64,000 nt of DNA. Source: a bacterium. GTDB taxonomy: Bacteria > UBA8248. Under the pieces are notes generated by a model. The model was given only the letters and a program-made list of their open reading frames with translations, was not told the origin of the DNA and ran no database searches. Location: positions 2,048,001 to 2,112,000 of the forward strand of contig OZ242260.1 in assembly GCA_965207065.1 (NCBI GenBank). Reading direction: 5' to 3'. A program made the position numbers and the translations under genes. Shown piece after piece: positions 42,791-46,584 of this stretch; positions within the stretch are counted from its first letter, which is position 1, and every line of letters begins with the position of its first letter.

Positions 42791-43498
42791 TCAGGAACCC
42801 TTATTCACCGCCTGGACGTCGTTCTGCGCCGGGTCGTTTGGGTGCACCCTGTCGGGCTGGATGTAGGGGGCCTGCATCTCGAAGATGTCCTGCGTGCGGC
42901 AGTACCGGGGACCGCCCAGCCTGCCCACGGGCTGGAGCTTCGCGGGGTCGATGTATACCTTCTCCTCATCGGTGAGTATCAGGTCCTCGCGCACGTGCCA
43001 GCGGAGCACCTCCCCGATGATCAGGTGCGTCACCCACTCATCGCCGAAGGGAATCATGCGCTCGAGGCGGCACTCCATCGCCACCGGGGCGTCCTTGATG
43101 CGGGGCGCGTCCACGAGGTCTGCGGGGACCATTTCGAGGCCCGCCGCCTCGAACTCGCTCTCATCGGGGGCGAAGTTGCCCGCGCACACGTTCATCGCCT
43201 CCTCCCAGCCGTTCACCACCGTGTGGATGACGTAGCCCTTGGTGTCGAGAATGTTGCGCGCGGTGTCCTTCGGCTTCATCACGCGCTCGCCGATGGAAAC
43301 CCGCTCGCCGACGGAGATCGACGCCATCGGCGGGTGGTGTGACACCATGGTGAAGAAGCTGAAGGGCGCCAGGTTCGCGACGCCGTCCGCGCTCATCGTG
43401 CTCACCCAGGCGATGGGCCGGGGGACGACCGAGCCGATGAGGAGGCGGTAGATCTGCTGGGGGTCTATGTCGGAGGCGTCGAAAATGCGGTAGTTCAT
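42791..43498 (-). CDS. Flavin reductase family protein
   Basis: VVPRPIAWVST, NLAPFSFF, KDTARNI, ESEFEAAGL, APRIKDAPVAMECR, PVGRLGG..Y. Confidence 0.9.
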   Translation of the reverse strand: MNYRIFDASDIDPQQIYRLLIGSVVPRPIAWVSTMSADGVANLAPFSFFTMVSHHPPMASISVGERVSIGERVMKPKDTARNILDTKGYVIHTVVNGWEEAMNVCAGNFAPDESEFEAAGLEMVPADLVDAPRIKDAPVAMECRLERMIPFGDEWVTHLIIGEVLRWHVREDLILTDEEKVYIDPAKLQPVGRLGGPRYCRTQDIFEMQAPYIQPDRVHPNDPAQNDVQAVNKGS

Positions 43499-43507
43499 CT
43501 GTTGTCC

Positions 43508-44641
43508 TTATGTCGTGAGAGGGGAGGACGCGGGTTGGTTCTCCGGGTAATCGAGCCGCGCAGGGTTCGTGTCCGCTAGGAGCGGCATCACCTCGCGCCC
43601 GAAAATCTCGGCTTCCTCGAGATGCGGCCAGCCTGAGAGGATGAAGTTGCGGACGCCCAGATCGACGTATTCCCTGAGCGCCTCGGCCAGCATGTCCGGC
43701 GTGCCGACCAGCATGGCGGCCGCGCCCGAGCGCACCTTGTTCACGCCCATCCAGAGGGTATCGGTGAGCCAGGGGGAGCCGCCCTCATACAACTCGTTCA
43801 TGCGGCGCTGGCCCTCGCTCTCGGAGCGATTCCTCTGGTCGGCCCACATCCGCGTGTTCTCGAGCGCGCTGTCCTCTAAAAGCGCCTCCGCGGCGCGTCG
43901 GGCTTCTTTCTGGGTCTCGCGGCACATCACGTGGAGGCGCAAGCCGAAGCGAAGGTCGTCGCGCCCGACTTCCTCCGCGCGGCGTCGCATGTCCGCGGCG
44001 TCCTCGGCGACTTGCTCCGGCGCTACCGCCCACATCATGTGCACGTCGGCGTGCTTGGCGCCCACGCTGCGGCCGGCTTCCGAGCTTCCGCCCAGGAAAA
44101 TCGTGGGATGGGGCTTCGAGACGGGCTCGGCGTACAGCGTGGCGTTCTCGACCTGGTAATACTTTCCCGAATAGCTCACCGGCTCATCGCTCGTCCAGAG
44201 CGCTTTCACGACGTCCAGGAACTCCTCCGTCCGCGCGTAGCGCTCCGCGTGGTCGAGGTGGTCGCCGTAGCGTTTCTGGTCCACCGGCGTCGAACCCGTC
44301 ACCACGTTCACGGTGAGCCGCCCGCCCGTTACGGCGTCGTATGTGTTCGCCTGCTGGGCGGTGAGCACGGGACTCGAAAGCCCGGGCCTAAAGGCCACGC
44401 AGAACTTGATGCGCGCGGTGCGCTGCGCGACGGCCAGGGTGATCATCCAGGCGTCCAGGCAATGCGTGCCCGTCGGCACGAGGAGGTTCACGAAGCCCGC
44501 GTCTTCCGCTGCGCGCGCCACTTCCGAGATGTACTTCACCGTCGGGGGACGCTCGGGCGTCTTGGCGTTGATGGTGTGCCCGTCGCCGTATCTTCCCGTC
44601 GGCAGAAACCATGCGTATTCGGTGGAGGTCAAGTTTCTCAT
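43508..44641 (-). CDS. LLM-class FMNH2-dependent monooxygenase (SsuD-like)
   Basis: WFLPT..GDG, LVPTG..CLDAW, AFRPG, NVVTG, RYARTEEFL, GGSSEAG, LVGTP, FILSGWPHLEEA. Confidence 0.88.
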   Translation of the reverse strand: MRNLTSTEYAWFLPTGRYGDGHTINAKTPERPPTVKYISEVARAAEDAGFVNLLVPTGTHCLDAWMITLAVAQRTARIKFCVAFRPGLSSPVLTAQQANTYDAVTGGRLTVNVVTGSTPVDQKRYGDHLDHAERYARTEEFLDVVKALWTSDEPVSYSGKYYQVENATLYAEPVSKPHPTIFLGGSSEAGRSVGAKHADVHMMWAVAPEQVAEDAADMRRRAEEVGRDDLRFGLRLHVMCRETQKEARRAAEALLEDSALENTRMWADQRNRSESEGQRRMNELYEGGSPWLTDTLWMGVNKVRSGAAAMLVGTPDMLAEALREYVDLGVRNFILSGWPHLEEAEIFGREVMPLLADTNPARLDYPENQPASSPLTT

Positions 44642-44747
44642 CCTTCGCGATGCGTACGGAAAAGGGCGACCCGCCGCATGGGCCGCCCGTATATCCTTGT
44701 ATCATACTGCTCGCCCCCGCTTGCGGGGCGAATCCTTCGACTCCTCG

Positions 44748-45392
44748 TCAGGCGGTCGCCGCCTCCGTCTGTTCGGCCAGCAGTTTGTCGAGCAACTCCT
44801 CGATGCGCTCCGATTCCATCCAGTCGGACTTGTAGGCGATCTTGCCTTCCTTATCCACGATGAACGTCATGTTCGGCATGCGCCCGAAGGCGTGCACGAC
44901 GCTCTCGTCCAGGTCGTCGATGAGCACGGGCACCTTCATCCCGAATTCCGACACCATCTCCTGCGCGTACTGTTTCTTGTGTTCATACGTCTCGTGCTGC
45001 GCGTATTTCTTGAAATGGCGCGTCTCCCCCGCGTGGGGTTCCTTGGAGTAGACGACGAAGAAGACCACGTCCTCATCCTTGTACTTTTCCTGCAAATCCT
45101 CGACGCCGGCTACCTGCCGGCGGTAGGGGGGTCACGTGATGGCCCCGAACTCGACCACGATGTTCTTCTTGCCCTTGAAATCGGAGAGGTCGAAAGCGGC
45201 GTCGTCCGAGGTCTTCAAGCGCACGTCCGGCATCGGGTCGCCCGGCTTCAGGGTGTCGCGGAACGCTTGCTTGCGCTCTTTTCGCGCTCCCATGAGGTTT
45301 CGCTTGATGAACTGCCATTTGTCGATATAAAACGCGCTCCAAAGCCCGAACAGCGGGCCCGGCGGCCTGTCGAATTCATCCGCTTCTCGCAT
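44748..45392 (-). CDS. Iodothyronine-deiodinase-like thioredoxin-fold selenoprotein (Sec at codon 87, TGA 45134-45132)
   Basis: ORFs 45132-45458 and 44748-45095 are in the same frame; read-through gives FGAIT-U-PPY...FFVVYSKEPH...QHETYE...PVLIDD; GGAG RBS before ATG 45392. Confidence 0.85.
45104..45122 (-). promoter_or_regulatory. Bacterial SECIS-like hairpin
   Basis: CGCCGGC-AGGUA-GCCGGCG, 7-bp perfect stem; loop starts 17 nt 3' of the UGA. Confidence 0.7.
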
Positions 45393-45529
45393 ACTCACTC
45401 CAGATATGGGTTGAAAAAGATGTCGCCCCATTAAAAACGAACGGGGCGAGAAGCGCAAGGGGAGGGGTGGGAGTTCTTGGTGACGAGTTCGAATTCTTGC
45501 AACATCAATTATCGCGGATTTACGTTTCC

Positions 45530-45678: not shown

Positions 45679-46215
45679 ATGACAATCCGCTTCGAGATGA
45701 ACGAAGACAAAGCCATCGAGGTATTGACCTGGCTTGCGAACGAACAGCCGGGGATCGGTGCGTTTCACGTCTCGAAGGTTCTTTATTATGCGGACAAGGA
45801 ACACCTGAACCGCTACGGCAGGCCCGTGGTAGGGGATACCTATATCCGAATGGAATTCGGCCCTGTGCCCTCGAAAACATACGATCTGATCAAGAAAGAA
45901 AACCTGGAGCTTGGTGTTCTCAAGAGATTCAGGGAAGCCGTCGATGTACGAGGCGGTTTTCGACACCTGCATCCCCTGAGAGCGCCGAACATGGATATGC
46001 TCTCAAAGACGGATGTCGCGTGCCTTTCGAATGCGCTCAAAAAATACGGAACCCGTGACTTCGGGGTCCTGAGCAGGATTTCACATCGTGAAACCGCTTG
46101 GACGGAGGCGCCGGAAAACGGGCCGATGGCCTATGAGCACATGATCGAGCAAGGCCCCGACCAGGCGGAGATCATACAAAACCTCAAAGAGCATTCGCAT
46201 CAAATCGCATTTTAG
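45679..46215 (+). CDS. Panacea (DUF4065/SocA-like) domain antitoxin
   Basis: KVLYYADKEHL..YGRPVVGDTY.RMEFGPVPS..YD, LSKTDV, LSRISH.ETAW. Confidence 0.85.
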   Translation: MTIRFEMNEDKAIEVLTWLANEQPGIGAFHVSKVLYYADKEHLNRYGRPVVGDTYIRMEFGPVPSKTYDLIKKENLELGVLKRFREAVDVRGGFRHLHPLRAPNMDMLSKTDVACLSNALKKYGTRDFGVLSRISHRETAWTEAPENGPMAYEHMIEQGPDQAEIIQNLKEHSHQIAF

Positions 46216-46218
46216 GAG

Positions 46219-46584
46219 ATGCGCTCCGGCAATGTTTTTCATTACCACAGCCGTGTTACCAGACCACCCAAAGACAAGTTCATCATCTGTGTCTGTCCCG
46301 AAGAACTCCTGTTCTTTTTCATCAACTCCAACCCGCCCATCCCGGTAGGCGCGGGGGTCGAAATCACGCCTTCCGATCTTCCCTGTCTGAGCCATTTATC
46401 TTATGTTGATACGTCGATGATGATCATGGTTTACCCCGACGAACTCGATGAGACATCGGCGAGAGGGGAGATATCGTTGCCCACGCGTCGAAGGATTGCG
46501 GCATGCGCCCGAAGCCACGGGATTCTTCCGGAGAGATTCCTGGGGATACTGGAGAGGAATTTCCTTACATCGTTTTCCAATTGA
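46219..46584 (+). CDS. Putative toxin partner of the Panacea antitoxin (possibly PemK/MazF-like fold)
   Basis: 3 bp downstream of the antitoxin; G.VF.......PPKDKFIICV...FFFINS...I...D.P.L.H.SYVD pattern. Confidence 0.55.
   Translation: MRSGNVFHYHSRVTRPPKDKFIICVCPEELLFFFINSNPPIPVGAGVEITPSDLPCLSHLSYVDTSMMIMVYPDELDETSARGEISLPTRRRIAACARSHGILPERFLGILERNFLTSFSN

Follow-up and report, generated by a model that had tools for sequence, protein, structure and literature searches.

A predicted deiodinase-like selenoprotein with an in-frame UGA codon in a marine Nitrospinota bacterium

The minus strand of the analyzed window, a 64,000-nucleotide stretch of contig OZ242260.1, is open in one frame from position 45392 to position 44748, except for a single internal stop codon, TGA, at 45134–45132. 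When this TGA is translated as selenocysteine (Sec, U), the frame encodes a protein of 214 residues, which starts at ATG 45392–45390 and ends at the terminal TGA 44750–44748 (coding sequence 44748..45392, minus strand). The position of the start codon matches that of 32 of 32 relatives, all of which open with M-R, M-K, M-E, or M-Q at this place. The segment GGAG at 45398..45401 (minus strand), located 6–9 nucleotides 5′ of the ATG, is likely to be the ribosome-binding site, as read from the sequence. Under genetic code table 11, the frame is divided into two open reading frames, 45132..45458 and 44748..45095. A preliminary description of the locus had proposed that the two fragments join across the TGA into one 214-residue protein with four recognizable motifs, and both the frame and the translation agree with this, since FGAIT-U(87)-PPY, FFVVYSKEPH, QH(133), and PVLIDD are all found in the product. 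The in-frame TGA (45132..45134, minus strand) is assigned to the putative selenocysteine U87 of the T-U-P-P-Y motif on the basis of the conservation of TGA or Cys in this column and of the alignment to the deiodinases Dio2 and Dio3. The protein does not contain any cysteine, and it is one of the 12 among 16 aligned sequences that are free of Cys besides U87.

The internal TGA is followed by a SECIS-type hairpin (45098..45127, minus strand), which is recognized by its fold, its fit to the bacterial model, and compensatory changes in paralogues. The hairpin has a lower stem of three base pairs (45127–45125 with 45100–45098). The upper stem, which starts after a gap of nine nucleotides past the UGA, is formed by seven perfect base pairs (45122–45116 with 45110–45104) and is closed by the loop AGGTA (45115–45111). 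The gap between the UGA and the loop is 16 nucleotides, which places the start of the loop at +17. The perfect seven-base-pair stem and the AGGUA loop at +17, which had been claimed from the letters of the sequence, are thus borne out by the sequence and by the fold. The energy of the hairpin is −18 to −19.5 kcal/mol, and the second position of the loop is G. The bacterial SECIS model (bSECISearch), as four constraints quoted in PMC13188914, allows a loop of 3–9 nucleotides, an upper stem of 4–16 base pairs, G within the first two loop positions, and a spacing of 16–37 nucleotides, together with an energy of −7.5 kcal/mol or lower. The hairpin agrees with all four constraints by its five-nucleotide loop, seven-base-pair stem, G followed by G, and 16-nucleotide gap; however, its spacing is the shortest that the model allows.

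By itself, the hairpin is a weak argument for a SECIS element. The energy of the 66-nucleotide fold is not unusual for DNA with 60% G+C content (z = −0.81; 39 of 200 shuffled sequences are as good). A SECIS-like hairpin, defined by a perfect stem of at least seven base pairs, a loop of 3–9 nucleotides, G in the first two loop positions, and a spacing of 16–37 nucleotides, follows 25 of the 1939 TGA trinucleotides in the window (1.3%), and the terminal TGA of the gene itself, at 44750, is one of these 25. The hairpin behind UGA87 rises above chance because the TGA and the hairpin are conserved in relatives.

The hairpin behind the terminal TGA 44750–44748 lies 23 nucleotides on, is rich in G+C, and has a stem of seven base pairs (window positions 44700–44750, minus strand), which formally conforms to the SECIS rules. 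Most orthologues stop with TAG or TAA; therefore, this second hairpin more likely represents a structure of another kind, for example a terminator-like one, in the intergenic region that precedes the monooxygenase gene. The presence of such a hairpin behind a true stop codon illustrates the weakness of the hairpin rule by itself.

A gene encoding an SsuD-like, luciferase-like flavin monooxygenase of 377 residues (43508..44641, minus strand; Pfam Bac_luciferase, 5.7e-71) starts 106 nucleotides downstream of the selenoprotein gene on the same strand. Its score against TIGR03565 is 336 bits, which is below the cut-off of 518. It is followed by a gene for a flavin reductase of 235 residues (42791..43498, minus strand; Pfam Flavin_Reduct, 7.8e-28). 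A match to the monooxygenase is located downstream of the selenoprotein gene in 22 of 22 relative loci from the same genus. A homologue of the flavin reductase is present downstream in 23 of the 24 loci from the clade with at least 70% identity for which at least 1500 nucleotides of flanking sequence are available; these loci are kin and include some duplicates. In a second genus, the flavin reductase gene directly follows the selenoprotein gene, and the one locus that lacks it, L079, belongs to a third genus. The monooxygenase and the flavin reductase are predicted as possible operon partners of the selenoprotein gene.

Two further paralogues of the gene are encoded in the query genome (L026 and L027; G000:C1:3060368-3061006 and G000:C1:3802926-3803531, plus strand), with identities of 62% and 43%, and each has an in-frame TGA at the same place and a hairpin downstream of it. 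The second paralogue is flanked by an FR47/GNAT-like gene and an MFS transporter gene, and the neighbors of the third one include a DinB_2 gene and a gene for another luciferase-like oxidoreductase. The clustering of stop-to-stop open reading frames in the neighborhoods was cluttered by shadow frames in the G+C-rich DNA, and from it only the Pfam-confirmed assignments of flavin reductase, MFS, FR47, DinB_2, and LLM genes were used. Loci with 58–66% identity were considered as distant orthologues of the query gene and were rejected, as their synteny is that of the second paralogue.

A separate gene pair is located on the plus strand of the window (45679-46584). It consists of a gene for a 178-residue SocA/Panacea-domain protein (Pfam, 3.1e-20) and, after three nucleotides, an open reading frame of 121 residues for which there is no Pfam match. 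The two genes look like a toxin–antitoxin-type pair. The pair is positioned between the selenoprotein gene and ftsH here and in 6 of the 22 relative loci from the same genus. In several other loci of the genus, ftsH is directly adjacent to the selenoprotein gene; therefore, the pair looks like a variable insertion.

Of 106 related loci (37–100% identity), which were gathered by three routes with some places fetched twice, 105 have TGA as the codon aligned with residue 87. The sole exception, a TGC, belongs to an unrelated WCxxC protein with 32% identity. The loci with TGA contain 57 distinct sequences in the 42 nucleotides downstream of the codon. In the smaller set of relatives, TGA occupies column 87 in 32 of 32; 6 of these 32 also use TGA as their terminal stop codon, and most end with TAG or TAA. 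A search of the query genome and 60 relatives provided a match in 52 of the 61 genomes, and the best 102 matches (E ≤ 9.0e-39, 37–100% identity) contain the in-frame TGA in every case by our own count. In the alignment of 16 sequences, residues are invariant at 19 positions on the N-terminal side of U87 and at 32 positions on its C-terminal side, and therefore the frame appears to be translated through the UGA. A copy in another genome (G033:C276:4460-5087) is split, with residues 1–106, containing two TGA codons, in one frame and residues 107–209 in a separate frame, and it may have undergone a frameshift or be in decay.

A profile built from the 16 sequences was compared with 1.84 billion representative proteins, of which 12,272 matched at E ≤ 0.001 and 1,376 at E ≤ 1e-10. 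Among the 150 best representatives, 117 have Cys in column 87; the site is spanned by 128 of them, and 113 of these have Cys. Eighteen of the 150 are fragments without the column: two end at residue 86, fourteen begin at residues 92–97, and two cover only a short C-terminal part. In the other 15, the position is occupied by Ser (five), Thr (four), Gly (two), or Asn, Arg, Ala, and Trp (once each). Residues T86, Y115, E118, and H120 are kept in 114–123 of the 128 spanning representatives.

The distribution of TGA and Cys in the column bears on the possibility that the TGA is a real stop codon, so that the locus would be either a pseudogene or two small genes encoding an 86-residue N-terminal piece and a C-terminal piece of about 115–121 residues. 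Such an arrangement would be consistent with the two open reading frames obtained under table 11 and with the public gene calls, nearly all of which correspond to the C-terminal piece. However, the TGA column is stable, without a frameshift, from 100% to 37% identity and in three paralogues, and invariant residues are found in both halves. Furthermore, the codon is positioned in the middle of a thioredoxin-fold active-site motif that has Cys in homologues, and neither half would form a complete fold, as judged from the AF2 model. It is extremely improbable that translation of the gene ends at this TGA.

The public gene calls show how the locus is handled by annotation. A search of a protein collection clustered at 90% returned 58 matching proteins of 118–377 residues. 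Among the 40 close ones (E ≤ 9.1e-36), 37 are 118–125 residues long and cover 47–57% of the query, which makes them C-terminal pieces; in the set of 150 best representatives, the two that end at residue 86 stop exactly at …GAIT or …GAVT. The expectation that standard pipelines would split the gene has therefore proved correct. One of the C-terminal fragments is named ‘redoxin domain-containing protein’ in its source. Two calls of close relatives span all or almost all of the protein and have Gly (P0152) or Trp (P0154) at the Sec position; presumably, they come from short contigs on which genetic code 25 or 4 was applied to the TGA. These calls would represent a second type of mis-annotation besides truncation. 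A scan of contigs with two narrow peptide patterns returned Nitrospinota loci and one unrelated protein only; because of the narrowness of the patterns, it says little on the wider distribution of the gene. The mis-annotation is systematic: the C-terminal half is nearly all that public protein sets contain of this gene, and therefore functional or comparative analyses of these genomes overlook an enzyme with its active site, of which there are three copies.

The hairpin downstream of the TGA has been compared among the relatives. The same stem is kept in close orthologues, with the loop AGGTG or AGGTA. By contrast, the paralogues and remoter relatives differ from the bacterial SECIS consensus quoted in PMC13188914, as their loop has four nucleotides (AGGT or AGTT) and their stem is displaced by one position. 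Where Arg codons of the 5′ arm have changed synonymously, the 3′ arm has changed in step, with an effect on the amino acids that it encodes (for example, in loci L113, L116, and L120). Locus L129 has an unrelated stem of eight base pairs with the loop GGC at an equal distance from the TGA. Covariation was evaluated in the 39 distinct sequences that were left when 17 sequences with the five-nucleotide-loop register and locus L130 had been set aside; the sequences are kin rather than independent, and the set is partly defined by the register. Paired cells make up 74.4% of the structure versus 65.8% in shuffled alignments, the covariation score is 0.207 versus 0.067, and 21 cells are changed on both sides versus 9.0; none of the 500 shuffles reached any of these three values. 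Two of the five measures, pair counts and pair types, fail to beat the shuffles (145 and 405 of 500, respectively). The controls in which the pairing partner was slid along the alignment are not clean: at −3, 76.2% of cells pair, as compared to 74.4% for the structure, with a covariation of only 0.019, whereas at +1 the covariation is still 0.184. As judged from the aligned sequences, the hairpin persists with compensatory changes across the paralogues.

The query genome consists of one contig of 4.48 Mb from a marine Nitrospinota bacterium, in which all four components of the Sec machinery have been found. The genes selA (579 bits), adjacent selB (386 bits), and selD (334 bits) score above the curated cut-offs, as does the tRNA-Sec gene (75.9 bits), which ARAGORN identifies as tRNA-SeC with the anticodon TCA. 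There is no in-frame TGA in selA or selB, and therefore TGA is not a general sense codon in this genome. The selD gene (L011; G000:C1:543537-544499, minus strand) contains exactly one in-frame TGA of its own, because of which it probably encodes the selenoprotein form of SelD. According to the accessible text of PMC13326102, three genomes of the GTDB phylum UBA8248 are among the ten bacteria richest in selenoprotein genes, with 48–54 genes each, and our loci L082 and L101 stem from one of these three genomes. The same accessible text does not mention deiodinases.

The UGA could also be read through without the Sec machinery, by means of a reassigned code, with Trp or Gly as the product, or by near-cognate suppression. 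The public calls P0152, with Gly in the column, and P0154, with Trp, are in line with a reassigned code. However, the absence of in-frame TGA codons from selA and selB, and the occurrence of exactly one in selD, argue against it, as does the use of TGA as the terminator in 6 of 32 relatives. The column is occupied by Cys in homologues, with Trp found once and Gly twice among the 150 best, and the SECIS-type hairpin is kept just downstream of the codon. A read-through that does not involve Sec is very improbable. The preliminary description had named the Sec machinery of the genome and the residue aligned with the UGA in homologues as the points on which the matter turns; selA, selB, selD, and tRNA-Sec are all present, and the aligned residue is predominantly Cys.

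Taken together, the gene product is very probably a selenoenzyme of the deiodinase-like family with a thioredoxin fold, soluble and cytoplasmic, for which UGA87 is decoded as Sec. Codon 87 would not be read as a stop, and the hairpin downstream of it would act as a bacterial SECIS element. The hairpin would recruit the complex of SelB, GTP, and Sec-tRNA(Sec), Sec would be inserted, and translation would continue to the stop codon at 44750–44748. SelB-dependent insertion is proposed because of the elements found at the locus and in the genome.

The assignment to the deiodinase-like family is based on profiles, solved structures, and the predicted fold. The protein matches the Pfam families Redoxin (66.6 bits), T4_deiodinase (PF00837; 59.6 bits, cut-off 27), and AhpC-TSA (51.4 bits, cut-off 26), with Redoxin, which belongs to the same clan, outscoring T4_deiodinase on the same stretch. 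No NCBIfam family scores above its cut-off; the best one, NF038285 (deiodinase_rel), reaches 96.8 bits as compared to the cut-off of 250, and the match is limited to positions 179–324 of the 347 positions of the profile. The top match of the single protein among the sequences of solved structures is Dio2 (8.1e-8), and the best matches of the family profile are mouse Dio3 (1e-12) and Dio2 (1.1e-11), over residues 43–188. ResA-type proteins match the family profile over about residues 44–130 only. The residue of the Dio2 and Dio3 structures in which Sec was replaced by Cys is aligned with U87. The likeness to deiodinases, which had been suggested from motifs, is upheld by the score of T4_deiodinase above its cut-off, the rank of Dio3 and Dio2 among the solved sequences, and the alignment of the Sec column. 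The AF2 model of the protein (pLDDT 82.4, pTM 0.83) was compared with solved structures by Foldseek, which returned ResA (5.7e-9, TMq 0.54), Dio3 (6.5e-9, TMq 0.60, the highest listed), and Dio2 (1.9e-8, TMq 0.56).

The usual Kyte–Doolittle threshold for a transmembrane segment is 1.6. The maximal mean over 19 residues is 0.61 in the query and at most 1.13 across the 16 aligned sequences, and there is no N-terminal transmembrane anchor by this measure in the query or in the 16 relatives. The region that corresponds to loop-D of the deiodinases contains an insertion with the flanking His; however, it is shorter by four (Dio3) to seven (Dio2) residues and lacks the Trp. The proton relay around Sec130 of Dio2, as given in the accessible part of PMC11592359, includes S127, T129, Y157, E160, H162, and H182. 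The equivalents around U87 are A84, T86, Y115, E118, H120, and H133, so that five of the six residues are kept. Each of these five (T86, Y115, E118, H120, and H133) is unchanged throughout the 16-sequence alignment.

U87 is predicted to be positioned at the start of helix α1, as is the case in animal deiodinases. Because T86, Y115, E118, H120, and H133 match five relay residues of Dio2, it may be expected that the selenolate attacks an electrophile, which could be the oxygen of a peroxide or a halogen atom, and is converted to Se-OH or Se-X. The protein has no resolving Cys, and indeed no cysteine at all, and therefore an external thiol reductant would be needed for the recycling of U87. The leading, tentative prediction is that the enzyme removes peroxide or hydroperoxide beside the SsuD-like monooxygenase and the flavin reductase, a guess that we put at rather less than an even chance. 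It follows from the gene order only, an order that is present in two genera and absent in a third (L079). Two-component flavin monooxygenase systems leak hydrogen peroxide, and the sulfate-starvation loci of pseudomonads include a 1-Cys peroxiredoxin. Other thiol-oxidoreductase roles, as well as reductive dehalogenation, remain open for the selenoenzyme.

The similarity to Dio2 and Dio3 raises the possibility that the protein works as a genuine reductive dehalogenase (deiodinase or debrominase) on halogenated phenolics and employs the Se-X mechanism; the gene would still be that of a selenoprotein. The closest solved sequences are those of Dio3 and Dio2 over the whole catalytic domain, ResA being matched by the N-terminal half only, and the T-U-P-P-F/Y motif and five of the six relay residues are kept. 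Halogenated tyrosine derivatives are abundant in sponges, and the isolate names of several of the metagenome-assembled genomes (MAGs) of relatives look sponge-derived. However, relatives also occur in MAGs from the open ocean and oxygen-deficient zones, and no halogen-related gene has been seen near the locus. The thyronine site of the deiodinases is shaped by loop-D, which is reduced in length in the query and is without the conserved Trp, and the alignments with Dio did not reveal the Gly-Lys/Arg carboxylate clamp. A different, redox function was expected by the authors of the 2005 survey, according to the accessible text of PMC1088965. Dehalogenation is therefore an unlikely function of the enzyme. 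There is a correspondingly small chance that the Cys-free, single-Sec clade of the deiodinase type, with three copies in each of the Nitrospinota genomes concerned, serves as a dehalogenase of iodinated or brominated aromatics from the sea or from sponges; if so, it would be a microbial counterpart, and perhaps the functional ancestor, of the thyroid-hormone deiodinases.

Whichever substrate it has, the predicted selenoenzyme belongs to a family that has been known in bacteria since 2005. Bacterial deiodinase-like selenoproteins, in Sec and Cys forms and with a bacterial SECIS element, were described from the Sargasso Sea, where the survey by Zhang, Fomenko and Gladyshev lists four Sec sequences under PF00837 in its accessible text (PMC1088965). 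The family is also listed under PF00837, with the motif UxxC, in the accessible parts of reviews from 2022 and 2026 (PMC9312934, PMC13188914). Because such selenoproteins have been in print since 2005 and the lineage has been catalogued as rich in selenoproteins, the query gene does not define a new family; it is an additional member, correctly called and of use to annotation, that is unsurprising to a specialist. The literature found consists of reviews and surveys only, with no functional study of a bacterial deiodinase-like protein, and it appears that none of these proteins has a demonstrated function. The clade described here is well defined, Sec-only, and Cys-free, and it retains the relay; it would thus be a sensible choice for the first biochemical study of the role that the family had before its use on thyroid hormones in animals.

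The query protein shares with the animal deiodinases Dio1–3 (PDB 4TR3 and 4TR4 for Dio3, 9H48 for Dio2) the position of Sec, the motifs G-x-x-T-U-P-P-F/Y and Y..E.H, the T, Y, E, H, and H residues of the relay, and the fold, with query TM-scores of 0.60 (Dio3) and 0.56 (Dio2). The segment preceding the Pro residues is G-A-I-T-U in the query and G-S-x-T-U in Dio. Unlike the animal enzymes, the query protein does not have an N-terminal membrane anchor, and the SECIS element would be inside the coding region instead of the 3′ untranslated region. In addition, Ser127 is replaced by Ala, loop-D is four to seven residues shorter and without Trp, and both the proximal and the distal resolving Cys are missing. 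[quoted passage not shown]

The thioredoxin fold is also shared with ResA/TlpA proteins and peroxiredoxins, and both Redoxin and AhpC-TSA pass their Pfam cut-offs. However, the query does not contain the CxxC motif of ResA/TlpA, and the sequence match to ResA is restricted to about residues 44–130. The active-site motif of peroxiredoxins is P-x-x-x-T/S-x-x-C. By contrast, there is no T-x-x-C spacing in the query, which has Thr at position −1 and Ala at position −3 relative to Sec.

The closest correspondence is to the prokaryotic deiodinase-like family, as described in the accessible text of PMC1088965: a thioredoxin fold of the PF00837 type, an in-frame UGA with a SECIS element downstream, the occurrence of Sec and Cys forms, and a function that is presumed to be redox. 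The query differs from the UxxC motif stated in the reviews (PMC9312934, PMC13188914), with which it was compared by that motif alone, in having U-P-P-Y and zero Cys. However, position +3 is occupied by Phe or Tyr in 83 of the 128 spanning representatives and by Cys in only 8; therefore, the difference may lie in the example chosen by the reviews and not in the family. The Cys-free clade with U-P-P-Y/F is closer to the motif of the animal deiodinases than to the UxxC of the reviews.
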